A DNA stretch of 64,000 bases from a virus (lineage: Duplodnaviria; Caudoviricetes), in IMG/VR virus record IMGVR_UViG_2724679537_000002, positions 5,485 to 69,484 of that record; one strand, written 5' to 3'. The notes under the pieces are model-generated. The model was not told the origin of the DNA. It did no database searches and saw only the letters and a list, made by a program, of their open reading frames with translations. The translations under genes were made by a program, and so were the position numbers. Below, one piece after another: positions 15,320-58,742 of this stretch (positions are counted from its first letter, which is position 1; each line of letters starts with the position of its first letter).

Positions 15320-18300
15320 TTACAGGTCTTCGGTGGCGGACAACATGGCGCGCTCATAGGCGGCACCCGCGCGTTCGATCAGGTCTTCCATCTCGGCGTC
15401 GCCGGACTGGCGCTCCATGACGGCCAGGATCCGGTCGGCCAGGTCCGGGGACAGCATGTCGGGCACCGTGCCGTCGATCACGGATTGCAGGAACTGGCGG
15501 TCGTTACGGCGCATGGCCTCCTCCTCGTTGTCGGCGGGCGCAGGCGGCTCGGCGCCCGGCGCCGGGTCGGCGGCGGGCTTGCCCTCGGCGGCGCTCGGCA
15601 GCCAGGCTTTGAGCTCGTCGACGCTCATCTCCTGCGTGCTGCCCAGGCCATCCCAGCCGGCGCGGTAACTGGACAGGTAGCCCTGCTCGGCAGCCTCCTT
15701 GGTGGCGAAGCCCAGCATCACCTTGTGCTCGTCCAGCTCGCCGTCCTTGCCCACCTGATTGATGACGAACACGCGCTCGCTCTCCAGGTCGGGGCCGATG
15801 AACACGTCCACCTCGTCGCCATCGGCGCCCTTGGTGCCCTTGATGTAGCCGTAGTCGTGGGCCATCGATACCGACCACTCTTCGCCTTCCTGCGTGGTGC
15901 CCGAGCGCTCGCTGCCCTTGGGGTTCTCGATGGCCACCGTCAGGCCGAGAATCTCAACCTCGCCCTTGGCGTAGTCGCCGCTTTCCTTCTCCGCCTCGGT
16001 CGGCTCGGTATCGGTGGCCTGGCGAGCCTGCTCGATGTCGTCCTCGCTTGGCTGTCCATCACCGGCGGGCGCTTCGTCCGGGGGTGCGCTGAACATGTCC
16101 AGCGACTCGATGGCGTAACTGCCCTCGCCGTACTCCTTCTCCAGCTCCCGGTTGGCGGCGTCGATGATCTGCTCGAGACTGGCCTGCTGGCCCTCGCCGA
16201 ACATGTCCACGGTCTGGCCGCGCTCGGCTTCCTGGCGCACGAACGCCGCCATGGCCTTGAAGGCCAGCCCCAGGCGCTTGGCGCTGCGGTTGTTCTGATT
16301 GATGAACAGGGCCATGGCAGAGGTGGCCGGCGGAATATCGCCGAACAGCCCCATCTGATTGACCACCTCCTCGACGCTCGACCCGTCCGCCTTGGCGCGG
16401 CGCACCAGGTTGGTGGCGTCGATGATGGCCTGCACCGCCTGCTCGTTCAGCGATACCTCGACGCTATCCACCAGCTGATTGGTCAGCGCGTCAGTACCGG
16501 CCTGGTCGGCGGCCTGTGCCCGAATGAACTCCGGAGCGGCCACGTTGAGGGCGTTGACCACGTTGGCCACTTCCGGCTTGCTGGCGTCGGCGGTCATCTC
16601 CAGCAGGCGGTCGTCGTTGTACGCCTTGGCGAAGATGGCGGCCTGAATGCGCGCCACCAGCGCCCCGGTGGGATTACCGTCACTGGTCATGTACTGGGCG
16701 GCCTCGGTGTCGCCCAAGGACTGCAGGAAGCCCATGATGAAGTCGCGGTTGGACGCCGCCAGCAGGTTGCCGTCATCGGCCAGCTTGGCGACCAGGGCCT
16801 CGTCCAGCCGGTCGGCATCGGCGCGAGCCTTCTCGGTACCGGTCATGCTCAGCTTGTCGTCCTGGTTGGCCTCGACGGCGAACTCCCGGCGGTCCAGCGC
16901 GGACGTGCGCACACGCACGAGCACGGGCGCCTTCATGGCGCGCACGCGGGCGGCATCCAGGTTGTAGTGGTGAGCCTCCTCGATCAGCCATTCGCGGTAC
17001 TCGTCGGCGCTGCCGCTGCGGTACGCCTCCTGAATGGCCATGGTGCGACCGTTGCCGGACTCCACGACGCGGTCCGGGCCCACGATGGGCGCCCCGGTGT
17101 CGGCGCGACGGGTGCGCCCCAAGCTGTCAGGATCCAGCTGGCGGGCGGTCTTCTTGACCCAGGCGATGGACGCATCGCGCCCGCGATCACGCGGCTGAAG
17201 CTCGGTCGGGAAGGCAGGGTTGGGGTCGCCGTTGATGTCATGCGAGGCGATCAGCTCCTCGGCCTCGACCACGGTGAAGCCGGTCTGCACCTCAGTACCC
17301 TTGGCGGTCTTCACCACGTTCTCGGCGCCCTCGGGCTCGAGCTCGCCGTCGGCATTGACGCCGGTCGGCGTGTCCTTGCCGGTGGGCTCGGCGGGCGGCT
17401 CGCCCGCGCGGCTGACGACCCCCAGGTCGATGAGCTCCGCCAGCTCCTTGGGCGTATGCTCCAGGGAGTCGCTCATAAAGAAGCCGGGGACGCCGGATAG
17501 CGTGTAACTCACGCCCACCGCGTTGCCGCCGGCGCCCACCTGCTCGGTATTCACCACCAGCGTGGCACCTCCTTTCGACAGGTCGCCGTAGGGCTCGCCG
17601 TCCCAGCCCAATTCGCGCAAGGCGTTGCGAACCTCAATGACGCGACCCTGGAAGAAGCTGTCGAGCTGGTCCCGGTAGCGCTCCTTGGCCTCATCGCCGG
17701 CCGCGATGATGCGCGCGAAGTCGTCAGCGGTCTGCGGATTTTGAGGGAGGGCGCCGGGTGCATCGGCGGCATCCGGGAAGCCCTCGACCTCCTGCTCCGA
17801 GCCGCCTTCTCCGCCTTCGCTCACCGCCTGGCTCAGCGGCTTGGGCTCGAAGTGCAGGTCGAGTTCCACGCCGGCATCGGTCAGCTCGTCGACGCCGATG
17901 TAGCCAAGCTCAGGGGAGCCCTGCCCGGGGTCGGCCCAGCCGAAGGCCTGCTCGGTGCCATCGCCCTTGGCGTCCTTCTCGGTGATGTACCAGTCGCCTC
18001 CGCCGCGAAAATAGTGCAGATAGGCGGTGGCCTCCATGCCCTTGCCGTCCTGCTCGTAGCTCTTGGCCATGCCGTCGATGATGCTGGCCAGCGCCTGCGC
18101 ACGATCGATATAGGCGGCCCCTTCCTCGCCCTTGCGAATGACGTCGGCCATCGCCCGGTACTGCTGACGGGAGAGCCACGGGCGCAGCTCGTCCAGCAGG
18201 TCAAGGCCTTCCTGCTTGGTCAGCGGCTTGGGCGTGTTCAGCGCCTTGTCCTCGGCTTCAATGCGGGCAATCTCGATCTGCCGGGTCAGGCCGTCGAGTT

Positions 18301-18919
18301 CGGTTTCCAGCTCGCCGATTTCGCCCTTCAGGGACTCGATGTACGCCAGGCGCTCGGCACGCTTCTGGTTCATGCGCGCGAAGGTCTTGGAGTTCTTCTC
18401 GGCCAGCTTCATGATGCGCCTCGCCACCTGACGAATCGGCAGGTCGCTGCCGCGTTCCGGAGCCACCACGATGGTGATGTCCTTCTTGTTGAGCATCCAC
18501 TTCCAGCTAATGAGCTCATCGGTGGGCTTCAGCGACTTGGCGGTACCGGCGTCGGGGTTGTGGAACATGACGGTCACGGTCTGGCCGTCGCTCAGCTCGA
18601 AGATGGCGGCGACATTGACCACGCCCTGGCGCTTGAAGGGGCTGGACACCTGCGAGGCCACGACTTCCAGCTCGCCGCCGCCGGCCGACATGACGCGCTC
18701 CAGGCTGCGCACCTTGCGCCCCAGGCTGGATTGTGTGGCAACCAGGGCGTCCAGTTCGAAGATGGCCTCAGCCTCCTCCAGGATGTCGTCGAGCGTCACG
18801 CTGTCGAAGATCAGGCCGTCGTCGGCGTCGGAGCGTCGGATGCGGTACAGCAGTTGGTCCAGCGACATGCCCACCGGCATGGCGCTACTGTCGTTCCACA
18901 GAACAGGAGGTGCAGACAT
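15320..18919 (-). CDS. DarA-like polyvalent head protein (DarA-N, DUF2958-like, DdrB/ParB-like and pyrophosphatase-like domains)
   Basis: 1199 aa; FELSDGQTVTVMFHNPD...WKWMLNKKDIT; YLHYF..GDWYITE; QPRDR...GAPIV...VESGNGR; IENPKGSERSG...YGYIKGTKGADGDEVDVF. Confidence 0.8.
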   Translation of the reverse strand: MSAPPVLWNDSSAMPVGMSLDQLLYRIRRSDADDGLIFDSVTLDDILEEAEAIFELDALVATQSSLGRKVRSLERVMSAGGGELEVVASQVSSPFKRQGVVNVAAIFELSDGQTVTVMFHNPDAGTAKSLKPTDELISWKWMLNKKDITIVVAPERGSDLPIRQVARRIMKLAEKNSKTFARMNQKRAERLAYIESLKGEIGELETELDGLTRQIEIARIEAEDKALNTPKPLTKQEGLDLLDELRPWLSRQQYRAMADVIRKGEEGAAYIDRAQALASIIDGMAKSYEQDGKGMEATAYLHYFRGGGDWYITEKDAKGDGTEQAFGWADPGQGSPELGYIGVDELTDAGVELDLHFEPKPLSQAVSEGGEGGSEQEVEGFPDAADAPGALPQNPQTADDFARIIAAGDEAKERYRDQLDSFFQGRVIEVRNALRELGWDGEPYGDLSKGGATLVVNTEQVGAGGNAVGVSYTLSGVPGFFMSDSLEHTPKELAELIDLGVVSRAGEPPAEPTGKDTPTGVNADGELEPEGAENVVKTAKGTEVQTGFTVVEAEELIASHDINGDPNPAFPTELQPRDRGRDASIAWVKKTARQLDPDSLGRTRRADTGAPIVGPDRVVESGNGRTMAIQEAYRSGSADEYREWLIEEAHHYNLDAARVRAMKAPVLVRVRTSALDRREFAVEANQDDKLSMTGTEKARADADRLDEALVAKLADDGNLLAASNRDFIMGFLQSLGDTEAAQYMTSDGNPTGALVARIQAAIFAKAYNDDRLLEMTADASKPEVANVVNALNVAAPEFIRAQAADQAGTDALTNQLVDSVEVSLNEQAVQAIIDATNLVRRAKADGSSVEEVVNQMGLFGDIPPATSAMALFINQNNRSAKRLGLAFKAMAAFVRQEAERGQTVDMFGEGQQASLEQIIDAANRELEKEYGEGSYAIESLDMFSAPPDEAPAGDGQPSEDDIEQARQATDTEPTEAEKESGDYAKGEVEILGLTVAIENPKGSERSGTTQEGEEWSVSMAHDYGYIKGTKGADGDEVDVFIGPDLESERVFVINQVGKDGELDEHKVMLGFATKEAAEQGYLSSYRAGWDGLGSTQEMSVDELKAWLPSAAEGKPAADPAPGAEPPAPADNEEEAMRRNDRQFLQSVIDGTVPDMLSPDLADRILAVMERQSGDAEMEDLIERAGAAYERAMLSATEDL

Positions 18920-18972
18920 AGCAAGGCCCCTTGATGGGTTGAACAGGGCGCCGATGGGCGCGCTATAGGGCC

Positions 18973-19013
18973 ATGCTATGGGAGGGAGTGAGGCGAGCCG
19001 GGTCGGCTTTTCC
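18973..19013 (-). promoter_or_regulatory. Putative late promoter GGAAAA-N29-TAGCAT
   Basis: Upstream of darA-like gene. Confidence 0.7.
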
Positions 19014-19039
19014 TGGCCGTGACGGGCTCCATGGCGGGC

Positions 19040-19330
19040 CTAGCCGCCGGCAAACACGTCACCGGAGCCGGCCGCCACGGCAGATCCACAGTCCACGGGG
19101 TCGCCGACGCGCCCCAGGGGTCTGCCGTTGACGTTGACGCTCCCCGACCCGGCAGCCAGTGCGCCGCCATGACAGACCGGCACGTCGTTGCAGTGCGTGG
19201 CCCAGCCGTCGCCCACGCGGTGGGCCGGGATGCCGTTGACCATGACGTCGGAGCTTCCGCTCGTGCTGTTGCGCGGCGGGAACGACCCGTGACCGGTGCA
19301 GCTGTCGCCTTGTCTCGTGACCGCTGGCAT
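19040..19330 (-). CDS. PAAR-domain spike tip protein
   Basis: 96 aa; PAVTRQGD, NGIPAHRVGD, NGRPLGRVGD repeats with Cys/His ligands. Confidence 0.95.
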   Translation of the reverse strand: MPAVTRQGDSCTGHGSFPPRNSTSGSSDVMVNGIPAHRVGDGWATHCNDVPVCHGGALAAGSGSVNVNGRPLGRVGDPVDCGSAVAAGSGDVFAGG

Positions 19331-19339
19331 AGAGCCTCC

Positions 19340-19819
19340 TTAGGCCGCCGCGAGCTCGGCGAGCTGCTGGCGGGCGTCTTCCACGGCTTCCCTGAGGGCG
19401 TCGCGCTTCTCCTCGAGGCGCTTCTCCATACGTGGCGCCGCCGTCTTCATGCGCTTGGGCAGTTGCACCTTGGCCTTGGCCAGACGCTTCTGGAAGGCGG
19501 TCCGGCCCCGGTCCATGGCCTGCACGATCTCACCGATGGCCTTGGCGTGGTCGTCCTGGTGGCGCATCGGCATGACCTTGCGGTTGAGCATGACCTGAAA
19601 GATGTCGCCCGGGCGCTTGATACGCAGCTTGACCACCTGACTATCGGAGAAGGTCAGGCTGATTTCGCGGTAGCTGACGCCGCTGGTGCGCTTGATGCGG
19701 GAGTCGACGTCGACACTCACCGGAGTGGTGCCCGCGCGTTTAAAATACTTTTCGAGCTCTTTGACAGCCTTATCCTTGCGGGTCAGGTCGTCGAAGGAGA
19801 ATAGGAGATTGGCAGCCAT
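19340..19819 (-). CDS. Hdf-like (DarA N-terminal homolog) protein
   Basis: 159 aa; KRTSGVSYREISLTFSDSQ...GDIFQVMLN resembles the DarA-N region of 15320-18919. Confidence 0.7.
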   Translation of the reverse strand: MAANLLFSFDDLTRKDKAVKELEKYFKRAGTTPVSVDVDSRIKRTSGVSYREISLTFSDSQVVKLRIKRPGDIFQVMLNRKVMPMRHQDDHAKAIGEIVQAMDRGRTAFQKRLAKAKVQLPKRMKTAAPRMEKRLEEKRDALREAVEDARQQLAELAAA

Positions 19820-20303: not shown

Positions 20304-21199
20304 CGCTCCCACCTCCCCAGCCATACGCGGGTGAATTGCTCTGGGGCGTCACCGTCCGCCCCGGGCGCGAACAGGGTGGCTACCGTCATGGCCACCAGCG
20401 GCTCCCCGCCGACGACCTTGATCAGGTCACCGGCGGCGATCTTCTGTGTGTACTTCAGGCGCGTGACCTTGGTCAGCACCAGGCAGCCCGTCATGTTGCG
20501 CAGCGTCATCGCGTTAGCGCCGGGCTGGAAGCGCGCGGCGCGCGGCTTGCCGCGATTGCCATACACGAACTCGCCATCGGCATTCAGGCTGTAGAACCAC
20601 GGGATGTCGTGGCGCTCCAGGAAGCCGGACTCTACGTCATCGGAGGCAGAGTCGACGATGGTGTCCACCGGCTCCTGGTCGAACAGCGAGCCCAGCGGGA
20701 TGAATGCCAGACGGCCGTTTCGCCACCTGACGACGCCGCCCGCTTCCTGCAGGGCGCGGGCGATGTGATAGGTGTGGGCCTCGCCGGCTAGGCAGACGAA
20801 GCGCGGTACCGCGAAGTCGCCCTCGATGCCGCGCAGCGTGGCCCCGCACGCGCGGTAGACCTCGGCCAGGGTGGCACCGTGCTTGATTACCGCCCGGGGC
20901 TTGATGAACGCCACCGGCGTCACCGGCTTCAGGGTGGCGATCAGCCGCACATAGCCGGACATGTCGTCGCCCTGCATGCGCGCCTGCTGAACGTGCTCGG
21001 ACTTGATGATCTCCAGCTCGTCACCGTCATAGGTGGTAATCGAGCGCCCGACCTCGAAGAGCTGGGCGGTCTCGGTACCGACGCGGATCTCGGCTTCCAG
21101 GGTGAGCGGTATCGGCACCAGGTCGGAGCGCAGCACCGCCCGGCGAATGAAGTCGCCGCGGATGCGCTGGTCGCCGTTCTCGCCGAAATACAGCTCCAT
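20300..21199 (-). CDS. Baseplate hub protein
   Basis: 299 aa immediately upstream of spike; VLRSDLVPIPLTLE. Confidence 0.6.
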   Translation of the reverse strand: MELYFGENGDQRIRGDFIRRAVLRSDLVPIPLTLEAEIRVGTETAQLFEVGRSITTYDGDELEIIKSEHVQQARMQGDDMSGYVRLIATLKPVTPVAFIKPRAVIKHGATLAEVYRACGATLRGIEGDFAVPRFVCLAGEAHTYHIARALQEAGGVVRWRNGRLAFIPLGSLFDQEPVDTIVDSASDDVESGFLERHDIPWFYSLNADGEFVYGNRGKPRAARFQPGANAMTLRNMTGCLVLTKVTRLKYTQKIAAGDLIKVVGGEPLVAMTVATLFAPGADGDAPEQFTRVWLGRWER

Positions 21200-21209
21200 G
21201 TCCTACCCC

Positions 21210-21587
21210 CTAGATCGTGATGACCGGGTGATAGAAGACGCGACGCGGCAGCTCGGCCTCCATCTGGGCAATCTCGCCGCCCACCTCGGAGCTGGAGCGC
21301 CCGAAGCCGCCGCCGGCGCTGAGGATGCCGGTCGCCTCCAGCTGTAGCGCGTTCTCGCGCTCGACGTAGAGCACGAACAGCGGGCGAATCTCCGCCCACT
21401 CGGACACCGTGACGTCCAGGGTGTCGTCGATCTCCGCGCCGTCGACCAGGTGCGTGAGCTCGGCGAAGCCGGCGTAGTACGACACCGCCGCCACGGCCAG
21501 AGCCGTGACGGATTCGGGTGGCAAGATGTTGGCGGCCCCACGTTCGTTCTCGACGAACCGGGCCACCAGGTTCGCCAGGATGGCCAT
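21210..21587 (-). CDS. Virion structural protein (possible neck/adaptor)
   Basis: 125 aa, coupled to the tube gene. Confidence 0.5.
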   Translation of the reverse strand: MAILANLVARFVENERGAANILPPESVTALAVAAVSYYAGFAELTHLVDGAEIDDTLDVTVSEWAEIRPLFVLYVERENALQLEATGILSAGGGFGRSSSEVGGEIAQMEAELPRRVFYHPVITI

Positions 21588-22087
21588 CAGCGATAATCCG
21601 CGCTATTGCCTTCCACGATCTCACCGAAGTAGTGGAAGAACATGGTGCCGCTGAAGGTCAGGACCTGGCTGCGGTTCTCCCAGTCGCGATCGGGATCATC
21701 AATCTGCAGGAAGGCATCGGTAATACGCTTGTAGCGCAGGTAGCGCTCTGGCGTGCCCTCGTAAATCTTGGCGTTGAAGGTGCCGCCGTTGGTGATGATG
21801 TCAACCAGCATCTGGTCGATGCTACCGGCCGTCACCTCCATAAAGGTCACCTGGCCCTGGTGGTTGACGCGGATCTGCTGCGGCTCGAACAAAGCGGCGC
21901 CCAGCGGCGACGGCACCTCGATCTCGCCTTGCACGGCCACGTCCGGCCACGGGCACTGCCGGGCCAGCAGGTAGTTCTGCTCGAAGCCCTCGATCTCGAA
22001 GGTGAAGTCGGAGTTCACGACCTTCTGGCCCATGGCCTTGGTCTGGTCGTAGAAGCCCTTCAGGTAAGAGGCATTGGATACGGTCAT
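21587..22087 (-). CDS. Tail tube protein (P1 BplB-like)
   Basis: 166 aa beta-rich; size and own late promoter fit an abundant tube protein. Confidence 0.65.
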   Translation of the reverse strand: MTVSNASYLKGFYDQTKAMGQKVVNSDFTFEIEGFEQNYLLARQCPWPDVAVQGEIEVPSPLGAALFEPQQIRVNHQGQVTFMEVTAGSIDQMLVDIITNGGTFNAKIYEGTPERYLRYKRITDAFLQIDDPDRDWENRSQVLTFSGTMFFHYFGEIVEGNSADYR

Positions 22088-24628: not shown

Positions 24629-25322
24629 CTGGAAATCGCGCCGGCGGCTTTTCAGCCGCGCTATCCTCCCTTGGCAGGGCCATCAGGCCGTGCTCGTCGG
24701 CTTCCAACAGGAATAGGTGGTCGAGCTCGTGTCGGGCAGCCTCGAAGGCGTCCAACAGCTGCACGAAGGCGCTCTCCGGGTAGTTGGCGATGACCCGCAT
24801 GCGCTCGATCAAGGCGGCGTCGACGTCGCCGGCAGATGGCACGGCGTCGCCGTTGACGATGAGTTGGGCCGCCATGCGCCCGATACGCCAGTGCGCGTGA
24901 CCGGACACGCCGGGCAGCTCGCCCTGCAGACGCTCGATGGCGCCGGCCAGAGCCCCAGTCAGGTGGCGCGCCTCCCAGCGGTCGCCCTCGATGGTGCCGA
25001 CCTCGACATGCTCGCTGGGGTAGTCCTGCTCGCCCAACAGGTAGTCGGAGAAGTTGGCCTTGCCGCCGGCTAGGCTGAAGTCAGGGCCGTCGTCCAGGGT
25101 CGACGCCATGTAGTGGCAGACGGCCATGGTGCGCTCCTGCACCGTCCAGTCCTCGGGGTTCTCCACCCCTTGCACGTCGTCGACGGCGGAGCGAAGGAAG
25201 GCGGTCGTGGCCTCCTCGTTGAGGTGCGGCGGTATTGCCGCCAGGGCGATGGCATCGATCATCGCCAACTCCCTCATGCGCACCGTCAGGCGTCGGGTGC
25301 GCAGCACCGGGAAGTGGATCAT
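24564..25322 (-). CDS. Tail/baseplate hub assembly chaperone-like protein
   Basis: 252 aa; WTVQERTMAVCHY; position in tail operon. Confidence 0.5.
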   Translation of the reverse strand: MIHFPVLRTRRLTVRMRELAMIDAIALAAIPPHLNEEATTAFLRSAVDDVQGVENPEDWTVQERTMAVCHYMASTLDDGPDFSLAGGKANFSDYLLGEQDYPSEHVEVGTIEGDRWEARHLTGALAGAIERLQGELPGVSGHAHWRIGRMAAQLIVNGDAVPSAGDVDAALIERMRVIANYPESAFVQLLDAFEAARHELDHLFLLEADEHGLMALPREDSAAEKPPARFPVGSCITELARYLGGKPAAAGP

Positions 25323-26080
25323 TGCGAGTCTCCTTTCATGGCGTCCCAGTCATGACGATCGATGGCGGTCAGCGTGCTGAACGTCACCGGCAACTGGAGC
25401 TGGATGAAGCGGCCGAACTTGTCGGAGGGGGAATTGAGCGGTACGCCGATGCTCTCGACGACCATCGGGGCATAGGTGCGCCCCTTGTAGCGGATGGCCA
25501 GCAGGGTCGGCGCCGCCGACGGCATGGCGGCCTCGACGAAGCCGTTCACGTCGCGCTCGCCCTGCTGGTACCAGTCCAGGGCCGCGGTCAGCAGCGTGCC
25601 CTCGGGGGCCAGGTACTGGGGCAGCACCCAACGCATGATCTGGTCCAGCGGCTCCTCGACCTCGGCGCTGGGGTCTCGCCAGGCGCGCAGCATGATCGTG
25701 GCCTGGAGGCGGACAGGCGGCATACCGCTGAACACCTGAGTGGAGTTCAGCTTGGTGATGCCCGTTCGCCCGCGCGCGGTCTCGCTGACTTCCTTGGTGG
25801 CATTTCCCGCGCCCTCGCCCAGGCGCTCGGCAATCGGCTGAATGGCCCCGCTTTGCAGCATGGCGGCCAGCGTCGGCGCCCTGGCCTCGGGGCCGGCGCC
25901 GTCAAATGGCGACTGCCAGTTGAAGGTCGCCTCCAGATTGGCGTCGTCGACGAACAGGCAGCGCACGCGCGCGCTCTCGTCCAGCGGCTCGCCCTTGTGG
26001 TCGACCTCGTAGATAGTCGCCACCAGGTGCGGATTGATGCCGTCCCACAGCGGGCCCAGGCCGGTAAATGGCAGCACCAT
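25319..26080 (-). CDS. Tail tube initiator-like protein (PmgG-like)
   Basis: 253 aa; NWQSPF, STQVFSGMPP, PMVVESI motifs of tube-fold baseplate proteins. Confidence 0.55.
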   Translation of the reverse strand: MVLPFTGLGPLWDGINPHLVATIYEVDHKGEPLDESARVRCLFVDDANLEATFNWQSPFDGAGPEARAPTLAAMLQSGAIQPIAERLGEGAGNATKEVSETARGRTGITKLNSTQVFSGMPPVRLQATIMLRAWRDPSAEVEEPLDQIMRWVLPQYLAPEGTLLTAALDWYQQGERDVNGFVEAAMPSAAPTLLAIRYKGRTYAPMVVESIGVPLNSPSDKFGRFIQLQLPVTFSTLTAIDRHDWDAMKGDSQ

Positions 26081-31428: not shown

Positions 31429-32481
31429 TTACTTGCCTCCCTGAAGAATGGCGATGGCCTGCTCGGGCGTCAGGCCCAGCTCGCGGGCGGTGGCGATCAG
31501 CTTGTCACGGGCGGCGGGCGAAGCGCCCAATGCCTGCATGCGCTTGCTGCCATTGGCCGTGCGCTTGGGCTTGGTGGTGGTGGCCCGGCTCTGCCGACGC
31601 AGGGCGCGCCGGGCGCGGTCGAAGTCGCGGTCGCCGGTATTGGCTGGCCCGCCCCGGGGGCGCTTGGCCTGCTTCTCGGCCAGCCTCTCGGCCTCCCTCT
31701 GCCGCTGGCGAATGTGTCCGCTACCGTCCTCGGTCTGGCGCCCCTTCTCGATGGCTCGAGCCAGGAAGGCTTGTACGGCACTGCCACCCTCGATCTCCGA
31801 CATGACGCGCAGCACGTGCTTGCACGCCACACCGCTGAGCTTGGGGTTACGGATCTTGGGATAGCCGGTCTCCGGGCGGCCGGCGTTGTAGCGGCCGATG
31901 GTTGCGATGTAGCGGTACCAGTAGCGGTGGCGCCCACAATCGCAGTCGAAGCGGATGCCCTCCTTGCGCAGGCGGGCGGCCGCCCGCTTCACGCTCTCCG
32001 CCCCGGAGGCGATGGCCGTCTGGTAGCCGGTGAACTCCACGGTGACGTGGTGGCGGCTGACGTCGCTGTCCGGGCCGGCATTGGTGATGAAGCGCACCTC
32101 CAGGGCGGACACCTGGCGGTTGCTGCTGCGCACGCCACGCGCCGCCGACGGCACCGCCATGGTGATTTGCCGACGGGCGCGGTCGCGGTCGACGGACAAC
32201 GACAGGTCGATGACCTGGCGCGCCGTGATGCCTCCCTTGAAGCGCTGACCGGCCGTGCGCGCATTGTGGCGGAACATGGCTAGGTCGTCGGCGGTGACGG
32301 GTCGCACCTCGCCACCCAGAGTGGTCATCAGCATGCGGCTGGCGTCGTAGTCGCCGCGCACCTCGTTGGGGTTGAGGATATTGGGCGCCGCCTGACGCTC
32401 CTGCCTGTCTTCCGCGGCGCGGGCGCGGGCCTCGGCGGCACTGCCGCTAAGACGGGATATTGCCCTCGGGTCGCCTGCCAT
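31429..32481 (-). CDS. Morphogenesis protein with SWIM-like Zn finger (P1 gp25-like)
   Basis: FDCDCGRHRYWYRY...RNPKLSGVACKHVLRV. Confidence 0.65.
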   Translation of the reverse strand: MAGDPRAISRLSGSAAEARARAAEDRQERQAAPNILNPNEVRGDYDASRMLMTTLGGEVRPVTADDLAMFRHNARTAGQRFKGGITARQVIDLSLSVDRDRARRQITMAVPSAARGVRSSNRQVSALEVRFITNAGPDSDVSRHHVTVEFTGYQTAIASGAESVKRAAARLRKEGIRFDCDCGRHRYWYRYIATIGRYNAGRPETGYPKIRNPKLSGVACKHVLRVMSEIEGGSAVQAFLARAIEKGRQTEDGSGHIRQRQREAERLAEKQAKRPRGGPANTGDRDFDRARRALRRQSRATTTKPKRTANGSKRMQALGASPAARDKLIATARELGLTPEQAIAILQGGK

Positions 32482-52184: not shown

Positions 52185-52210
52185 CACCTGAACACGAGAA
52201 AGGAGCCGAT

Positions 52211-52774
52211 ATGGCACGCGGAGTGAACAAGGTCATCCTCATTGGCAACCTGGGTCAGGATCCGGAGGTGCGCTTCATGCCCTCCGGCAACCCGGTCGCC
52301 AACCTACGGCTGGCCACTACCGACAGCTGGATGGACCGTCAGAGCGGGCAGCGACAGGAGCGCACCGAGTGGCACAGCGTCGTGCTGTTCAACAAGACGG
52401 CCGAAATCGCCCAGCAGTACCTGCGCAAGGGCTCCAAGGTCTACATCGAGGGCCGCCTGCAGACGCGCAAGTGGCAGGGGCAGGACGGCCAGGACCGCTA
52501 CAGCACCGAGATCGTCGCCAACGACATGCAGATGCTCGACTCCCGCGACGACCAGCAGGGGCAGTCGGCCGGCGGCTACGGCGGCCAGCCACAAGGCGAC
52601 TACGGCCAGGGCGGCCAGCAGCAGCGCAGGCAGCCGCCTCAGAGTCAGCCGCCCGGCTACGGCGCCCCGCCGCCCAGCCAGGCCCCGCAAGGCGGAGGCG
52701 GGGGCGGGGGCGGCTTCAGCGACTTCGACGACGAGATCCCGTTCGCCCGGTTCCCGAATATCGCCGGGGGCTGA
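52211..52774 (+). CDS. ssb: Single-stranded DNA-binding protein
   Basis: [21 protein letters not shown]...DFDDEIPF. Confidence 0.97.
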
Positions 52775-52799
52775 CCCGGGCAGCTATCAAGGAGGCAGC

Positions 52800-53897
52800 A
52801 TGCCAACGATTGATCGAAACGGCACCGTGAGCTTCGGCGATGCCAGCCTGAACGTCCTGAACGTCTGGGAGGAACCGGAGCGTCAGGGCCCGCTTCAGTG
52901 GCAGGCATGGGAGCGCCAGTTCAAGAAGGATGTCTTCCTTCGCATTGCCCAGCAGCTTCGCCGGATTGGCTGGCAGACGGAGGTGCCGGCGGACATGGTC
53001 GAGCGGTACGGCCGGCGCTTCGCCGAAGGTTACCGCTACTGCCGAAAGGGCGACCTACAGGGTCGACTCGAAGTCACCGGTCGCTGCATCAAGTTCGAGA
53101 TGTGGCAGGACGTCGCCAGCGTCGAGAATCCCAACGGCGGGCGCTACGACTTCGATAAAGAAAAGCGGATGCCCTATCTACTTTGGCTGGAGATGGAGCG
53201 CACCCGCCGCCGACTGCGCGCCTACCTATGCAACGTCTTCGCCGGCTACGAGTTCAACCACAAGCCGCGTGACGGGCGCACTGCGAAGCGCGGTCCCGGG
53301 GCGATGACAGCAATGGAGTGGGTCGAGGAATGCTGGCGTACCAGCTGGCATTTCAAGGGCGACACCAGCGCTTACGCGATCAGCGACGTCAACAGGAAGT
53401 CGGCCGATGGAAAGCTGATCGAGCACGGCCAGCGCGTCTACTTCGCGGATCGGAAGGGCCGCATGTGCGTCGGCACCGCCTACTACAACATCAACAACAT
53501 GTGGTGGGTGGTTACCGGCAAGTACGGCGTCACCAATGAGGCCAGTTTCGCTCTCTACGTCGACAGCCCGGGCGACCTTCGGCGAAAACGAAACGATGGC
53601 CTGAGCCGGAAGCGCCTTGAAAGCGAACTATCCCGGGCCGTCAAGGCGATGGACTTCCGACGCGCCGAGACTCTGAAAAACATCCTGTTCCCGCCCGAGG
53701 AACCGCTCTACCTCATCTGGCACAAGGGACACGACGCCTATCACCGCCCTGGCGCCTGCGGCTACACAACCGATGCAAACCAGGCTGGCAAGTTCACATG
53801 GGAGGAGCTGGGGCGCTTTCGCCCTACCGACGGCAGCATGGAAGATCATCTGAGCCTGATCGTGCCGCTGGCGGGCGAGCAAGCAAAGGCAGCATGA
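52800..53897 (+). CDS. Hypothetical phage protein
   Basis: 365 aa from ATG 52800, AAGGAGG RBS; NGGRYDFDK, AYYNINNMWWV. Confidence 0.8.
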   Translation: MPTIDRNGTVSFGDASLNVLNVWEEPERQGPLQWQAWERQFKKDVFLRIAQQLRRIGWQTEVPADMVERYGRRFAEGYRYCRKGDLQGRLEVTGRCIKFEMWQDVASVENPNGGRYDFDKEKRMPYLLWLEMERTRRRLRAYLCNVFAGYEFNHKPRDGRTAKRGPGAMTAMEWVEECWRTSWHFKGDTSAYAISDVNRKSADGKLIEHGQRVYFADRKGRMCVGTAYYNINNMWWVVTGKYGVTNEASFALYVDSPGDLRRKRNDGLSRKRLESELSRAVKAMDFRRAETLKNILFPPEEPLYLIWHKGHDAYHRPGACGYTTDANQAGKFTWEELGRFRPTDGSMEDHLSLIVPLAGEQAKAA

Positions 53898-53923
53898 CCG
53901 TTCCCCGCACGCGCGGGGCTCTA

Positions 53924-54064
53924 CTTGCCTGCCGCACAGGCAGCTCAGAAAACGTGGCCAACGATCCCGGCGCCGCCGTGGTGCTTGCCTGCCGCACAGG
54001 CAGCTCAGAAAACTACAGACCCGCCCTGATCGAGCGGGAACTCCTTGCCTGCCGCACAGGCAGC
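53924..54064 (+). CRISPR. Type I-F-like CRISPR mini-array (2 full repeats, 1 truncated, 2 spacers), no cas genes in window
   Basis: CTTGCCTGCCGCACAGGCAGCTCAGAAA at 53924 and 53984, first 21 nt again at 54044; 32-nt spacers. Confidence 0.92.
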
Positions 54065-54104
54065 CCTATCATCCACCCTGCCCCGCCCTGCCGCGGGGCT
54101 TCCT

Positions 54105-54146
54105 GTTTCTGGAGGACACCATGCAGTTTCTGGAGGACACCATGCA
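54105..54146 (+). repeat. 21-bp tandem duplication containing RBS and start codon
   Basis: GTTTCTGGAGGACACCATGCA twice. Confidence 0.9.
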
Positions 54147-54435
54147 GTGCGATTGCCAAACCAAGGTCGCCGAGAAGCTGGCCGAGCACGTCAAGGCGAA
54201 GCTGCCCGAGGGCTTCAAGGACTTCGATGCCAAGCTCCAGGGCTATGGCTTCACCCTGACCGGCAATCAGATGTCGTCGCCGCTCATGATCGGCTACCAG
54301 GGCGAGGTCTGGGTCCCGAAGAAGGATCCGACCAAGGGCATGAAGCGCCAGAAGATCGACACCTTCGTCACCGCCAACCTCTGCCCCTTCTGCGGCAAGG
54401 CGGCCAAGCCCGACGACGACAAGGAGGCGGCATGA
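54142..54435 (+). CDS. Hypothetical Zn-binding protein
   Basis: MQCDC...CPFCG. Confidence 0.8.
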   Translation: MQCDCQTKVAEKLAEHVKAKLPEGFKDFDAKLQGYGFTLTGNQMSSPLMIGYQGEVWVPKKDPTKGMKRQKIDTFVTANLCPFCGKAAKPDDDKEAA

Positions 54436-54704
54436 GCCAGACACACACCATCGTCGTGAGATTCCCCGCCGGGATTGTGCCGCGATACAGCGCAGCCACC
54501 GAATTTCAGGGCGGCCAGGTGGTGGCCGTGGACTTCGACGGTAACCGATTGCACGTCTGTCAGCAGCTGGAGGAGGCGCTGGAAGCATGCCTTGAGCTGA
54601 TCGATACCATCTCGCCTCTGGAGGGTGATGTGGTTCGCAAGACGCGCGCGGCCCTGGAGCTTGCCCGGAGCGCCCCGGCCAAAGCCAGAGGAGATAGCTC
54701 ATGA
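54432..54704 (+). CDS. Hypothetical protein
   Basis: 90 aa, ATGA-coupled. Confidence 0.7.
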   Translation: MSQTHTIVVRFPAGIVPRYSAATEFQGGQVVAVDFDGNRLHVCQQLEEALEACLELIDTISPLEGDVVRKTRAALELARSAPAKARGDSS

Positions 54705-54895
54705 CACCCCACCCTGACAGCCCCAACGCCAAGTGGGCGCGCCACGGCTACCAGGTCGAGCGCATCCCGCGCCGCGGGAGCGGCGGCCATCACCGCATCA
54801 TCCGCGACCCCGAGGGGCGCGTTGTGCTTCAGGACGCCGGCCACGCCGGCGAACTGGAGTGGATCAAGGCCAACCTGGAGGGGCATGACCCATGA
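54701..54895 (+). CDS. Hypothetical protein
   Basis: 64 aa, ATGA-coupled. Confidence 0.65.
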   Translation: MTPHPDSPNAKWARHGYQVERIPRRGSGGHHRIIRDPEGRVVLQDAGHAGELEWIKANLEGHDP

Positions 54896-56670
54896 ACTAC
54901 GGCAGTGTTTGCAGTGGAATCGAAGCGGCCTCAGTAGCCTGGGAGCCGTTAGGCATGACGCCCGCATGGTTCTCTGAAGTCGAAGCGTTTCCCAGCGCCG
55001 TGCTAGCGCACCACTGGCCTGACGTGCCGAACCTTGGCGACATGACCAAGATAAGCTGCCGCATCCTCTTGGGCGAGATTGAAGCGCCTGATGTGCTGGT
55101 AGGCGGCACGCCCTGCCAAGCGTTCAGCGTCGCGGGAATGCGGGGGGGAATGGCCGATGCGCGCGGCCAGTTAACAATGAAATACGTGGAGCTAGCCAAT
55201 GCAATCGACACTGTTCGAACTCGGGCCGGAAATGCCGAAGCCGTCATCGTCTGGGAAAACGTCCCCGGCGTCCTCAGCGACAAGCAAAACGCCTTCGGAT
55301 GCTTTCTTGGCGCGCTCGCTGGGGAAGACCGCGAATTGCAGCCTTCAGGGAAAAAATGGACGAACGCTGGTTGTGTGTATGGACCCCAAAGAGCAGTCGC
55401 ATGGCGGGTTCTTGACGCCCAATATTTCGGAGTGGCCCAACGACGCCGCCGTGTGTTCGTTGTCGCAAGTGCTCGAACAGACTTCGATCCCGCAGCGGTA
55501 CTTTTTGAGTCCGAAGGCGTGCGCCGGGATACTCCGCCGCGCAGAGAAAAGGGGCAAGGCTTTACCCACGATGCTGCTCCATGCCTTACAAGCTCAGGCC
55601 GCGGCGTTGAACGACCTGGAGAAACCAGAGGGCAAGACCCCGTAGTTGCGGTTCCGCTGCTGGAACCCGGCGCCCGTACTGGGAAAAGCACCACCGACCC
55701 TCGCGTAGGAATGGGTATCGGTACCGACGGTGACCCCATGTACACCTTGCAGGCTGGAAAGCAGCATGGCGTGGCAGTCGCCTTCGGACAAAACCGTCAA
55801 TCAGGGCCAGCAGAAACAAGCCACGCCCTCAACGCTCATAGCGGCCCGCACGGTCGCCTTGATTTTGAGAGCGAGACGTTCCTGGTTCAGTCAGTTACTG
55901 GAAATATCTCGCACACCCTAAACACCGCAAACAACGGAAAAGGCTGCAGCGAAGATGGCACCGGGCGCGGTGTGCCCACGATTGCCTTTAGCTCCAAAGA
56001 CTATGGCGGCGATGCGCTATCAGAATGCTCGCCAACACTACGCGCAGGCGGCCACTCTGACAGCCATGCCAATGCGGGCGTGCCGCCAGCGGTGACGGTG
56101 GCTCTGCGTGGCCGCGAGGGTGGCGCGACTGCCGAGCTAGGCGGCGAGGTTGCCACAGCGCTTCGGGCATCCACCGGTGGGGGTGATAAGCCGCACGTAC
56201 TGACAGTTCACGGCACCCAAGACCCTTGTGTCAGCGATAGCACGGCGTTCGCTTTGGGCCGCAATCATGGCGGGGAAAATACGGTTCTTTCTGGTGTTGA
56301 TACGTACAATGGAAGCGTTACTGGTGACGTTGCTCATACGCTGCGCGATGGTAACTCAGAAGGCGCGCCCGCAGTAGTATCGAATCTCTCCGTCCGCCGC
56401 CTAACCCCACCCGAATGCGAGAAACTGCAAGGCTTTCCGCCCGGCCACACGCTAATACCCACTGCCAAGCGCAACTGGCACCGCGAGTTGGAGGAAATGC
56501 GCGACTATTTCCGCCGCACGCACCCTGACGTCACCGACGACGAGATTATCCGGCTGGCAGCCGATGGCCCGCGCTACAAGGCTATCGGCAACTCGATGGC
56601 CGTGCCCGTCATGCGCTGGATCGGACAGCGCATTCAGCAGGTCGACTCACTACCCACGGCCGCCCACTGA
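54892..56670 (+). CDS. DNA (cytosine-5) methyltransferase with long variable region
   Basis: SVCSGIEA, GGTPCQAFS, WENVPG, QRRRRVF, RRLTPPECEKLQGFP, YKAIGNS. Confidence 0.93.
   Translation: MNYGSVCSGIEAASVAWEPLGMTPAWFSEVEAFPSAVLAHHWPDVPNLGDMTKISCRILLGEIEAPDVLVGGTPCQAFSVAGMRGGMADARGQLTMKYVELANAIDTVRTRAGNAEAVIVWENVPGVLSDKQNAFGCFLGALAGEDRELQPSGKKWTNAGCVYGPQRAVAWRVLDAQYFGVAQRRRRVFVVASARTDFDPAAVLFESEGVRRDTPPRREKGQGFTHDAAPCLTSSGRGVERPGETRGQDPVVAVPLLEPGARTGKSTTDPRVGMGIGTDGDPMYTLQAGKQHGVAVAFGQNRQSGPAETSHALNAHSGPHGRLDFESETFLVQSVTGNISHTLNTANNGKGCSEDGTGRGVPTIAFSSKDYGGDALSECSPTLRAGGHSDSHANAGVPPAVTVALRGREGGATAELGGEVATALRASTGGGDKPHVLTVHGTQDPCVSDSTAFALGRNHGGENTVLSGVDTYNGSVTGDVAHTLRDGNSEGAPAVVSNLSVRRLTPPECEKLQGFPPGHTLIPTAKRNWHRELEEMRDYFRRTHPDVTDDEIIRLAADGPRYKAIGNSMAVPVMRWIGQRIQQVDSLPTAAH
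55199..55645 (+). CDS. Nested +1-frame ORF, candidate second (beta) MTase polypeptide
   Basis: 148 aa ending SLSQVLEQTSIPQRYFLSPKACAGILRRAEKRGKALP. Confidence 0.6.
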   Translation: MQSTLFELGPEMPKPSSSGKTSPASSATSKTPSDAFLARSLGKTANCSLQGKNGRTLVVCMDPKEQSHGGFLTPNISEWPNDAAVCSLSQVLEQTSIPQRYFLSPKACAGILRRAEKRGKALPTMLLHALQAQAAALNDLEKPEGKTP

Positions 56671-56696
56671 GGCGGCCTTCCTACGGAGGCTGCCCC

Positions 56697-57539
56697 ATGC
56701 AATGCCCTGTCATGCGTTACCACGGCGGCAAGTGGCGCATCGCCAGCTGGGTGATATCGCACTTCCCGCGCCACCAGGTCTACGTCGAACCCTTCGGCGG
56801 CGCCGCTGGCGTGCTGATGCAGAAGCCGTCGGTATCGGCCGAGGTCTACAACGACCTCGATGGCGAGATCGTCAACGTGTTCCGCGTGTTGCGTGACCCA
56901 GCGAACGCCGAGCGCCTGGCGGAAGCCTGCCGCTTCACACCCTACGCCCGCGCCGAGTTCGACCTTTCGCAAGAGCCGGTCGACGACCCCATCGAGCAGG
57001 CCCGGCGCACACTGCTGCGCGCATGGGCCAGCTTCGGCTCGGCCGGCGCCACGCGCGGCAACTCGGGGATGCGCACCTTCACTCGACCGGATGGCGTCTA
57101 TCTTGGCGTGGCGCACGCCTGGGCCCGCATTGCTGACGCGATACCCGAGTTCGCCAACCGCTTTCGCAACGTGGTGATCGAAAGCCGTCCGGCCATCGAT
57201 GTCATGGCGCAGCACGACAGCCGGGAAACGCTGCATTACGTCGACCCGCCCTATCTGCCGGAGACGCGCAGCCAGGGAAGCAGCCGCTACTACCGTCACG
57301 AGATGACTGTCGAGGAGCACGAGGCACTGCTGGATACCGTCAGGCACCTGCAGGGCTTCGTCGTGATCAGCGGCTACGACTCCACGCTCTACAACAACCG
57401 CCTACCCGGCTGGATGCGCGTGACGCTGCCCACGTCCGGATCCAGCCGCTTCGGCAGTGTGAAGCGTACTGAATGCCTGTGGCTGTCGCCGAGGGCGGCA
57501 GACCAGCAACGCCAGCGCGACATGTTCGCCACCGCCTAA
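56697..57539 (+). CDS. DNA adenine methyltransferase (Dam/D12 family)
   Basis: RYHGGKW, YVEPFGGAA, NDLD, YVDPPY. Confidence 0.93.
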   Translation: MQCPVMRYHGGKWRIASWVISHFPRHQVYVEPFGGAAGVLMQKPSVSAEVYNDLDGEIVNVFRVLRDPANAERLAEACRFTPYARAEFDLSQEPVDDPIEQARRTLLRAWASFGSAGATRGNSGMRTFTRPDGVYLGVAHAWARIADAIPEFANRFRNVVIESRPAIDVMAQHDSRETLHYVDPPYLPETRSQGSSRYYRHEMTVEEHEALLDTVRHLQGFVVISGYDSTLYNNRLPGWMRVTLPTSGSSRFGSVKRTECLWLSPRAADQQRQRDMFATA

Positions 57540-57584
57540 CCCGGCGCGGACAGCGTGCCGCGCCCTTCAACCTGGAGAATCGCC

Positions 57585-58742
57585 ATGTGGTTCAAAAACC
57601 TTCGTCTGTATCGCCTGCCCGCCGCCGGCAGCATCGCCGTTGAAGCCCTGTCCGAGGCCATGAGCAGCTTCGCCACCCGCGACATGGGTGGCCATGAGGC
57701 CAAGCACCTTGGCTGGGCGCCGCCGGCCGGCCGCAAGAGCGACACCCTAGTGCACGCCATCCAAGGCCAGTACCTGCTGACCATGCTTCGCCAGGAACGG
57801 ATCCTACCCTCCTCCGTGGTCAAGGAGGAGGTGGAGGCCCGCTGCGAGGAGATCGAGGCCGTGCGCGGCGGCCCGGTACCGCGCGCGGAGAAGATGGGCA
57901 TCAAGGAGCAGGTCTACGAGGAGTTCCTGCCCCGCGCCTTCGTGCGCAGCCATCGGGTCGACGTCTGGTGGGACATGGCAGGCGGCATGATCGCCGTCAA
58001 CACTTCGTCGGCGAAGCGTGCCGAGGAGGCGCTGGACCTGTTGCGCGCCACGCTGGGCAGCCTGAAGGTGGTGCCGGTTGCCACCCACTCGCTGCCCATG
58101 CGGGTCATGACGCACTGGCTGCAAGACCCAAGCCTGCGCCCGTCCTGGCTGGAGGTCGGCGACAGCGTGCAGCTCCGCGAGAAAGGCGACGACGGCAAGG
58201 TGACGGCCAAGAACGTCGACCTCGACACCGACGACATGCAACAGCTTCTGGAATCCGGCCGCCAGGTCGCCCAGCTGAGCATCACCCTCGACGAGCGGGT
58301 ATCGCTGACGCTGACCGACGACCTGACGCTCAAGGGGCTGCGCTTCTCCGACGCCCTGCTGGACGAGGCCAGCCAGACCGACGATGGCGACGACGCCATC
58401 ATCCGAATGGAAACCGACTTCATCCTGATGGCCAACGCTCTGCGTGACGTCATCAAGCTGCTGTTGACCGGGCTGGGCGGCGAGGCCGTTCCCGAACTCA
58501 AGAGCCTGGAGGAGGCAGCACCGACGCCCGCCTCGCCCGGCGCCGATGATCCCGACCCGCTGCTGGGCGAGGTTCGCGGCTTCGTGATCGAGAGTCGCAA
58601 GGCGTCGATATCGGCCGTGCAGCGTCACTTCAAGATTGGCTACAACCGCGCGGCGCGCCTCATCGAGGACCTGGAGCGCCAGGGCGTGGTTTCCCCCATG
58701 GACAACAGCGGTTCCCGCAAGGTGCTCAAGGAGGCGGCATGA
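57585..58742 (+). CDS. rdgC: RdgC recombination-associated protein fused to FtsK-gamma domain
   Basis: MWFKNLRLYRL, ERILPSSVV, LPRAF; C-terminal KASISAVQRHFKIGYNRAARLIEDLERQGVVS. Confidence 0.9.
   Translation: MWFKNLRLYRLPAAGSIAVEALSEAMSSFATRDMGGHEAKHLGWAPPAGRKSDTLVHAIQGQYLLTMLRQERILPSSVVKEEVEARCEEIEAVRGGPVPRAEKMGIKEQVYEEFLPRAFVRSHRVDVWWDMAGGMIAVNTSSAKRAEEALDLLRATLGSLKVVPVATHSLPMRVMTHWLQDPSLRPSWLEVGDSVQLREKGDDGKVTAKNVDLDTDDMQQLLESGRQVAQLSITLDERVSLTLTDDLTLKGLRFSDALLDEASQTDDGDDAIIRMETDFILMANALRDVIKLLLTGLGGEAVPELKSLEEAAPTPASPGADDPDPLLGEVRGFVIESRKASISAVQRHFKIGYNRAARLIEDLERQGVVSPMDNSGSRKVLKEAA

Follow-up and report, generated by a model that had tools for sequence, protein, structure and literature searches.

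Positions 53924-54064 of a 64,000-nucleotide stretch of viral DNA (Duplodnaviria; Caudoviricetes), hereafter the window, hold a short CRISPR array of type I-F that is accompanied by no cas genes. The window comprises bases 5485-69484 of a 69,484-bp IMG/VR provirus (IMGVR_UViG_2724679537_000002) with an estimated completeness of 79%. The array consists of host-like repeats and two spacers, both of which match one phage-like module on Halomonas plasmids, and its repeat and spacer content varies among related phages at the same genomic site. We conclude that the locus is probably a functional cas-less mini-CRISPR array that serves in conflict between mobile elements and forms part of a dual type I-E/I-F array locus.

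Phage genes of the same strand (+) flank the array, which is embedded in a rightward early operon; a single unit of type I-E abuts it, and a terminator-like hairpin follows it. The repeat units and the hairpin are as follows:

53898-53923, + strand: solitary type I-E terminal repeat unit, 26 nt, CCGTTCCCCGCACGCGCGGGGCTCTA; it retains the hairpin CCCCGC-ACGC-GCGGGG but not the 3' handle
53924-53951, + strand: repeat R1, type I-F, 28 nt, CTTGCCTGCCGCACAGGCAGCTCAGAAA; source of the 8-nt 5' handle, CUCAGAAA, of CRISPR RNA (crRNA) 1
53952-53983, + strand: spacer S1, 32 nt
53984-54011, + strand: repeat R2, type I-F, 28 nt, CTTGCCTGCCGCACAGGCAGCTCAGAAA, the same as R1
54012-54043, + strand: spacer S2, 32 nt
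54044-54064, + strand: terminal repeat R3, the first 21 nt of which (CTTGCCTGCCGCACAGGCAGC, containing the whole hairpin) equal those of R1 and R2; the handle is replaced
54080-54099, + strand: GC-rich terminator-like hairpin of 7 G-C pairs with a 6-nt loop, followed by TTCCTGTTTC

These coordinates agree with a preliminary description of this DNA, which had reported 28-nt repeats at an exact 60-nt period, the two spacers, and a third repeat with its hairpin and without its handle. The three copies start 60 and 60 nt apart, and the hairpin CTGCC-GCACA-GGCAG is intact in each; R3 diverges only after 21 nt. The window contains three copies of the 21-nt pattern, and 100 dinucleotide-preserving shuffles contained none. 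R1 and R2 align with the Rfam family CRISPR-DR4 (RF01317, consensus GUUCACUGCCGcACAGGCAGCUUAGAAA) over 28 of 28 model positions, with the stem-loop and AGAAA conserved, at 33.6 bits (E 4.7e-6 in a 301-nt search), and R3 scores 20.1 bits; a scan of the whole window at the gathering threshold returned no match because R1 and R2 fall just below the gathering score of 35 bits. The locus has several of the features by which a type I-F array is recognized, namely 28-nt repeats with CTGCC-N5-GGCAG and an 8-nt 3' part, 32-nt spacers, and a 60-nt period, and the assignment to type I-F made in the preliminary description is borne out. It likewise has several of those of a viral mini-array, being virus-borne, with two spacers, a host-like repeat core, and spacers that match another mobile element.

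Profile searches of the 69-kb record found no Cas6f (PF09618), Cas1 (PF01867), or Cas7f/Csy3 (PF09615). Nor is there an AT-rich leader: the stop codon of the preceding open reading frame (ORF) ends at 53897, and the GC-rich I-E unit stands directly 5' of R1. The lack of a leader and of cas1 and cas6 had been described before, and because adjacent cas genes and an AT-rich leader are both missing, we regard the locus as an orphan mini-array rather than a CRISPR-Cas locus. Its compound nature had escaped the preliminary description because the abutting I-E repeat was missed. All five hairpins appear in the minimum free energy structure of a 226-nt transcript; its z score of -0.88 is not unusual, and the folding energy therefore adds nothing.

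The repeats closely resemble those of bacterial chromosomes. Their 23-nt core, comprising the hairpin and the 8-nt handle, is identical in at least 120 genome loci of Halomonas and many other Proteobacteria. Most of these loci are arrays with a 60-nt period, in which the copies number as many as 133, and they come from Burkholderiales, Lysobacterales, Halomonas, Shewanella, and others. A comparison with host arrays, proposed in the preliminary description, shows the core to be identical in the long chromosomal I-F arrays (60-nt period) of three Halomonas species, Halomonas dongshanensis, Halomonas sp. NO4, and H. koreensis (loci L023, L025, and L042), whose repeats consist of GTTCG or CTTCG followed by the shared core; departures from the common host consensus are confined to repeat positions 1, 4, and 5. 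The prefix of the window repeats, CTTGC, is found at none of the 120 host loci among the matches listed, and a BLAST search of the window against those same 120 listed loci gave no match outside the array. A scan of IMG/VR for the 26-nt repeat with the prefix of the window likewise gave 0 matches.

Several lines of sequence evidence indicate that the phage probably infects Halomonas-like bacteria (Halomonadaceae). Among five genomes tried, the early genes of the provirus have their best matches in Halomonas; a neighboring phage gene is present in 7 of 342 Halomonadaceae species genomes, in four of them at 74-79% nucleotide identity; and a prophage (L215) in one such genome, G034, is 79-82% identical to the window over 52200-54440. 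Cas6f is encoded in 122 of these 342 genomes (36%), Cas6e in 78 (23%), and both in 13. The idea, already put forward in the preliminary description, that the array borrows a host I-F Cascade against other mobile elements is thus supported by the host-identical core, by the frequency of Cas6f in the presumed host family, and by the plasmid protospacers described below. The sequencing runs with near-identical DNA are from rock, marine, fermentation, and shale-gas metagenomes.

Both spacers have protospacers on Halomonas plasmids. In a BLAST search with the array region against 72,556 plasmid records (7.3 Gb), S2 matched two plasmids of Halomonas sp. THAF12 (E 2e-4), and S1 matched a plasmid of Halomonas sp. 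ZM3. When the spacers, including those of a sister phage described below (E1 to E3 and F1), were compared exhaustively and without gaps with the whole of pTHAF12_c, a plasmid of 23,068 bp, the matches were as follows:

S1: 30/32 matches, 5' flank GACC, mismatches at 10 and 26, in a site-specific integrase gene
S2: 30/32 matches, 5' flank GACA, mismatches at 6 and 18, in a gene for a 262-aa hypothetical protein, 3.1 kb from the S1 site and on the opposite strand
E1 (the same as E2): 28/32 matches, 5' flank CAGG, mismatches at 9, 21, 23, and 27, in a replication-protein-like gene
E3: 28/32 matches, 5' flank GAAG, mismatches at 3, 4, 24, and 27, in a hypothetical gene
F1: 25/32 matches, 5' flank GACC, mismatches at 12, 14, 18, 24, 27, 31, and 32, in a tail-like gene

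Shuffled spacers (n = 180) give 18-24 matches on the same plasmid, and 24 only once. S1 also matches at 31/32, with GACC, a related element of the Halomonadaceae genome G115; at 30/32, with CC, plasmid pTHAF12_a; and at 27/32, with GACC, plasmid pZM3H1 and genome G251, and the flank of its protospacer is CC in all five of these places, pTHAF12_c included.

The protospacer-adjacent motif (PAM) of type I-F systems is 5'-CC, and AAG and AGG are among the interference PAMs of the Escherichia coli I-E system. The flanks in pTHAF12_c follow the type of the repeat in this respect, with AAG or AGG for the I-E spacers and CC for two of the three I-F spacers. The expectation of protospacers with an I-F PAM, voiced in the preliminary description, is realized for S1 but not for S2, whose flank is CA. 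Because all three I-F flanks read GAC[C/A], the A before the S2 protospacer may represent PAM escape in the pTHAF12_c copy. Every sixth base of a type I guide is left unpaired with the target in the Cascade structure, and the two mismatches of S2 fall exactly at such positions, 6 and 18 (chance 10/496), as do three of the seven mismatches of F1. In a phage collection, the array matched 13 records, which comprise chance-level matches of 19-26 nt (E 2-8) and the I-F repeats of a Zymomonas record.

All five distinct spacers (S1, S2, E1, E3, and F1) have their protospacers inside the same phage-like module of about 14 kb in pTHAF12_c. The plasmid backbone encodes Rep, a MobV relaxase, BrnT/BrnA, ParA, and RelE/ParE, and the module encodes AlpA, an integrase, an excisionase-like helix-turn-helix protein, a PHROG 9432 replication protein, a cI-like repressor, a PHROG 4315/1722 tail-like protein, and a PmgG-like head-morphogenesis protein. 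The layout of the module is satellite-like. The products of its tail-like (18345-19391) and PmgG-like (20804-21694) genes (plasmid locus L233) have 60% and 57% protein identity to those of window ORFs 31429-32481 and 25319-26080, respectively. The module is also present in the 169-kb plasmid pTHAF12_a and, at 75% identity, in pZM3H1; altogether it was found in only 3 plasmid records and 5 of the 342 Halomonadaceae genomes, and it is absent from the phage collection. The protein targeted by S2 has no relatives in IMG/VR. The module is too small for a whole phage and could be a decayed prophage or a satellite-like element.

Related phages show that the I-E unit of the window corresponds to the last repeat of a longer array. 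Two JGI metagenome contigs (L199 and L202) derive from a sister phage whose flanks are 83-95% identical to the window, with a different gene preceding the array site. They carry an I-E part with three 29-nt repeats, CCGTTCCCCGCGCCCGCGGGGCTCAACCG, at a 61-nt period and the 32-nt spacers E1, E2 (identical to E1), and E3, then a 26-nt unit as the degenerate last repeat, and then an I-F part in which a repeat of prefix CTTAC is followed by a single 32-nt spacer (F1) and by a second I-F repeat reduced to its hairpin; the terminator-like hairpin and the downstream gene follow as in the window. The window unit at 53898-53923 is identical to that last I-E repeat at 26 of 26 positions. A type I-E array has 29-nt repeats with the hairpin CCCCGC-N4-GCGGGG and a handle ending in AACCG at a 61-nt period; the window unit stands alone and has that hairpin without the handle.

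The I-E repeats of the sister phage also resemble those of hosts. Their stem and CTCAACCG handle are shared with arrays of 24-215 copies in 11 Halomonadaceae genomes; stem plus CTCAAC was matched in 14 of the 78 Cas6e-positive genomes, those 11 being the ones with 24-215 copies. Three host I-E loci that we read have a period of 61 nt and the repeat C[C/T]GATCCCCGCAG[G/A]CGCGGGGCTCAACCG, and a BLAST search with the L202 array also returned I-E arrays of E. coli, Salmonella, Streptomyces, and others. At the other extreme, an IMG/VR provirus (L124, about 85% identical) and the G034 prophage (L215) have one I-E-like unit directly followed by the terminator-like hairpin, with no spacer. That hairpin is kept after the repeat units in L124, L215, and L202 and is similar to the I-E repeat, with a loop 2 nt larger. 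Exactly the differences that set L202 apart from the window (CTTACC, a replaced S2, and changes at 54069-54090) recur in contigs of two sequencing runs, X3 and X4, from which we conclude that the compound form exists in two further runs besides the two JGI contigs. Among 70 IMG/VR loci with relatives of the upstream gene, none has the I-F repeat, and L124 alone has the I-E-like unit.

Because spacer and repeat content differs among the window, L199/L202, L124, and L215, we describe the array site as a variable dual-subtype locus, of which the window presents the state with a terminal repeat only for type I-E and two spacers for type I-F. The I-E unit of the window, which has no spacer, is perhaps just a remnant; alternatively, it may serve in I-E hosts as an RNA decoy of the kind discussed below. 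The I-F prefix is private to each phage, being CTTGC in all three window repeats and CTTAC in both of L202, and neither occurs at the 120 host loci listed. A private prefix is what duplication of the first repeat at spacer integration would produce, which makes the phage array itself the probable place of spacer acquisition. Units gained or lost, and the doubling of E1 as E2, would be accounted for by recombination from one repeat to another.

How the array would work can be proposed from its sequence and from what is established for type I-F systems. The precursor is cleaved at the hairpin's 3' base by Cas6f, which does not then dissociate; the mature I-F crRNA has an 8-nt 5' handle from the upstream repeat and a 20-nt hairpin from the downstream one; and the Csy complex, or Cascade, finds CC-flanked targets and recruits Cas2/3. 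The array would be transcribed with the rightward early operon (RecE/RecT, SSB, methylases, RdgC), and because no promoter of its own is predicted, its crRNAs would be made on infection or induction, a timing that would suit attack on a resident rival. Cas6f of the host would cut each of the three hairpins at its 3' base and free two 60-nt crRNAs, each consisting of CUCAGAAA, a 32-nt spacer, and CUUGCCUGCCGCACAGGCAG. To complete crRNA 2, R3 needs only its first 20 nt, and those are intact. The type I-F Cascade of the host would then load both crRNAs and, with Cas2/3, destroy DNA with CC-flanked protospacers, the presumed target being the phage-like integrative module on small MOBV mobilizable Halomonas plasmids and related elements.

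A wider reading, which we put forward tentatively and consider rather doubtful as a whole, would apply to the entire clade. A group of temperate Halomonas phages would keep a leaderless, cas-less compound array, with I-E and I-F units head to tail in one transcript, that arms the phage whichever Cascade its host has. The adaptation enzymes of the host would add spacers in place, as suggested by the phage-specific repeat prefix that is copied into every unit. All spacers would be aimed at one integrative phage-like element with homologs of two phage morphogenesis genes, possibly a satellite of the phage. The Vibrio phage ICP1 uses CRISPR-Cas of type I-F, encoded in its own genome, against the satellite PLE. 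Should the Halomonas module be a satellite that parasitizes the phage, as it may be, the locus would be a cas-less counterpart of ICP1 against PLE. In both cases, phage I-F crRNAs would be directed at a parasitic or competing integrative element of the host, as proposed here from sequence; ICP1 has its own cas genes, however, whereas this phage has none and would depend on the host, and the satellite nature of its target is only possible.

Several observations weigh against a functional array. The repeats depart from the common host consensus at positions 1, 4, and 5, and the Rfam score of R1 and R2 (33.6 bits) lies below the gathering score of 35 bits. The cas genes on which the window provirus would depend are presumed from its likely host family, and G034, which houses the related prophage L215, matched neither Cas6f nor Cas6e. 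No promoter is predicted upstream of the array, and in a lysogen the array may be silent because no promoter-like site lies 5' of it; among RNA runs, none contained more than 5% of the words of the locus, which was seen in contigs only. On the target side, no 32/32 protospacer was found in any collection searched; exact scans of IMG/VR in which every sixth base of S1, S2, F1, and E3 was set to N yielded 0 matches for each. The S2 protospacer is flanked by CA rather than CC in both records that carry a match, and none of the 342 Halomonadaceae genomes has it when as many as 3 mismatches are allowed. The 25/32 of F1 is only just above the shuffle maximum of 24. G034 is, as it happens, the only genome of the family found with the spacer-less form of the locus, a lone case that may mean nothing.

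A different function could be served by the same anatomy. The units might soak up Cas6f and Cas7f (for the I-E unit, Cas6e and Cas7e) or guide Cascade to cas or creT promoters, and so blunt the immunity of the host, as described for the phage-borne RNAs termed Racr and Cracr; we consider this unlikely as the main role. According to the study of Racrs (RacrIF1-3 and RacrIE1-2; Camara-Wilpert et al. 2023, PMC10651486), these have no targeting spacer and produce aberrant Cas6f-Cas7f complexes, and solitary viral repeat units inhibit I-F, I-E, I-C, and V-A systems. There are points of likeness: Racrs are phage-borne mimics of I-F and I-E repeats without cas genes, the window unit at 53898-53923 is a solitary unit by anatomy and spacer-less, L124 and L215 carry an I-E unit alone, and any phage crRNA made in abundance would, incidentally, draw Cas proteins away from those of the host. 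Unlike Racrs, however, the I-F part of the window has full repeats, canonical spacers, and real protospacers.

Cracrs resemble the locus in being multispacer, cas-less phage repeat transcription units that rely on host Cas6 for maturation and on host effectors for loading, steps that in our case are predicted. According to the Cracr study (Liu et al., bioRxiv 10.1101/2024.10.29.618823), the spacers are short, most of those of type I-F measuring 17-21 nt, and have a PAM-proximal match to cas or creT promoters, and coarrayed viral spacers always address loci of a single subtype. The I-F spacers of the window, by contrast, are of canonical length (32 nt), and their match to a plasmid module extends over almost the whole spacer instead of a PAM-proximal stretch only; the array of the relatives mixes I-E and I-F repeats. 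In the I-F cas loci of three Halomonadaceae (42.5 kb, a small sample), we found no site that combines CC with at least 9/10 seed matches. On spacer length and these three loci, we rejected identification of the locus as a Cracr, and the decoy RNA suggested in the preliminary description gains no support from spacers of this length without such seed matches.

Mere carriage is less probable still. The array could be a scrap of a host CRISPR array that was picked up by illegitimate recombination, is not effectively expressed, and is under no selection; in keeping with this, it lacks a leader and a predicted promoter of its own, its last repeat is degenerate, its spacers found no perfect protospacer, and the closest relatives, L124 and L215, do without it. 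Such a scrap would not be expected to have counterparts with different spacers at the same site of related phages, with five distinct spacers of two subtypes directed at one 23-kb plasmid and mostly preceded by correct PAMs. The phage-specific prefix is likewise absent from the 120 host loci among the matches listed, and R3 retains exactly the part that completes crRNA 2. The array also recurs: a contig of run X1, identical to the window over 53298-54627 except for a 21-nt duplication, carries it unchanged, so that X1 may be the sample from which the record came, and a 470-nt contig of run X2 spans it with 8 differences; the two of these with a listed position are both upstream of the array, and we do not claim identity of the X2 array. 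Runs X3 and X4 contain high-depth 31-nt records that resemble the repeat; these may come from a host array and are a hint only.

That the crRNAs control the genome of the phage itself or genes of the host, the latter of which had been suggested, is very improbable, as we found no supporting evidence: in the 69-kb record, the spacers match only themselves (next best match, 12 nt) and nothing else above chance, the array has no significant match in five Halomonadaceae genomes (best E 0.07), and the S2 protospacer is missing from all 342 genomes.

We thus favor a mini-array directed against a rival mobile element, a kind of locus that is best known from archaea. Virus-borne mini-CRISPR arrays for competition between viruses were reportedly surveyed by Faure and colleagues in 2019, and their part in such competition is said to have been shown for Sulfolobus viruses by Medvedeva and colleagues in the same year. 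According to a later review, such arrays have host-like repeats and spacers against related viruses, and their use has been validated only in archaeal viruses (PMC11656645). The locus is like these in having one or two spacers, no cas genes, host-like repeats, and as its target a mobile element related to the carrier (57-60% protein identity in two genes). It differs in its bacterial host, type I-F repeats, a target copy on mobilizable plasmids, the abutting I-E repeat, and the two-subtype tandem in relatives. The I-F part is a new bacterial member of this kind. For a compound viral array of two subtypes, we found no description in the literature searched; the supplementary tables of the surveys in PMC10651486 and bioRxiv 10.1101/2024.10.29.618823 might list the record.

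Isolated I-F arrays of Pseudomonas aeruginosa that are moved by mobile elements offer a further comparison. They lie, as does the phage array, far from cas genes and work with a cas operon elsewhere, and according to the report on them (PMC13142298) their leader is nearly identical to that of a cas-adjacent array and their role is host immunity. The phage array, by contrast, is leaderless and lies inside a phage operon.

Genes on either side of the repeat units belong to the same rightward operon, which runs from a RecE-like exonuclease through RecT, two PHROG families of unknown function, an SSB-like stretch, and a PHROG 7674 gene to the repeat units, and continues 3' of them with a PHROG 7033 gene, a C5 and then an N6 DNA methyltransferase, an RdgC-FtsK-gamma protein, and a dATP/dGTP pyrophosphohydrolase-domain protein. 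The two immediate neighbors are as follows:

52800-53897, + strand: upstream early gene, of unknown function, in the PHROG 7674 family; the repeat units begin 1 nt past its stop codon
54121-54435, + strand: downstream small gene of the PHROG 7033 family, function unknown; conserved beside the array site in relatives

The start of the upstream gene is uncertain, the listed ORF being 52242-53897, with an SSB-like gene overlapping its 5' part in another frame. The downstream gene has its ribosome-binding site and its start codon within a perfect tandem duplication of 21 nt (GTTTCTGGAGGACACCATGCA twice) at 54105-54146; it probably starts at 54142, the duplication adding an upstream in-frame ATG. 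One copy is missing in the contigs of all four sequencing runs (X1 to X4), and L124, L202, and L215 have a single copy; the duplication is either a polymorphism of the record or an assembly artifact.

A tyrosine integrase lies at the right end of the provirus, and the other strand encodes NinB, an IstB-like ATPase, a DarA-like protein, and structural proteins. On that strand are a 1199-aa protein with DarA-N, ddrB-ParB, and inorganic-pyrophosphatase domains (15320-18919) and a 2148-aa ORF (8861-15307) that is partly like the 'chromatin remodeling complex ATPase' gene of Xanthomonas phage Rb1; with the two DNA methyltransferases (54892-57539), they make up a large anti-restriction set. The 395-aa protein encoded at 57555-58742 (+) is a fusion of an RdgC domain and an FtsK gamma (KOPS-binding) domain. 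A Megablast search of window positions 1-25000 against phages gave one short Xanthomonas phage match and no close relative.

Other IMG/VR records contain I-F-like units of varied form. In contigs L195 (8200-8275, -) and L196 (2517-2592), one I-F core repeat and a second repeat that consists of the hairpin only enclose a spacer of about 25 nt (53-nt period), just past the stop of a gene; that spacer length is in the size range of host crRNA-like regulators rather than of canonical crRNAs. Contig L193 (about 4925-5080, -) has four I-F-like hairpin units between two genes, irregularly spaced and some with the AGAAA handle, which could be a mixed cluster of Racrs and a mini-array. Three full I-F repeats (prefixes GTTCA, GTTTA, and GTTCA) with two 32-nt spacers and a last repeat that is not degenerate occur in contig L198 (6419-6571), apparently inside GC-rich, coding-like sequence. 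The provirus records L194 (about 4587-4837) and L197 (31-2265) have a solitary I-F repeat near an opposite-orientation array of a slightly different I-F repeat, and these arrays may be host arrays at provirus borders.

The locus offers a bacterial case that can be read from the DNA, with host-identical repeats, two spacers in one phage and three distinct ones (in four units) in its sister, all of them directed at one 23-kb plasmid, and PAMs that switch with the type of the repeat. If the array is real and active, it would mean that a phage can hedge across hosts with different CRISPR types and that the adaptation machinery of the host can write into a leaderless phage array. It would also make the conflict of phages with plasmids or satellites in Halomonas directly testable with cultivable strains.

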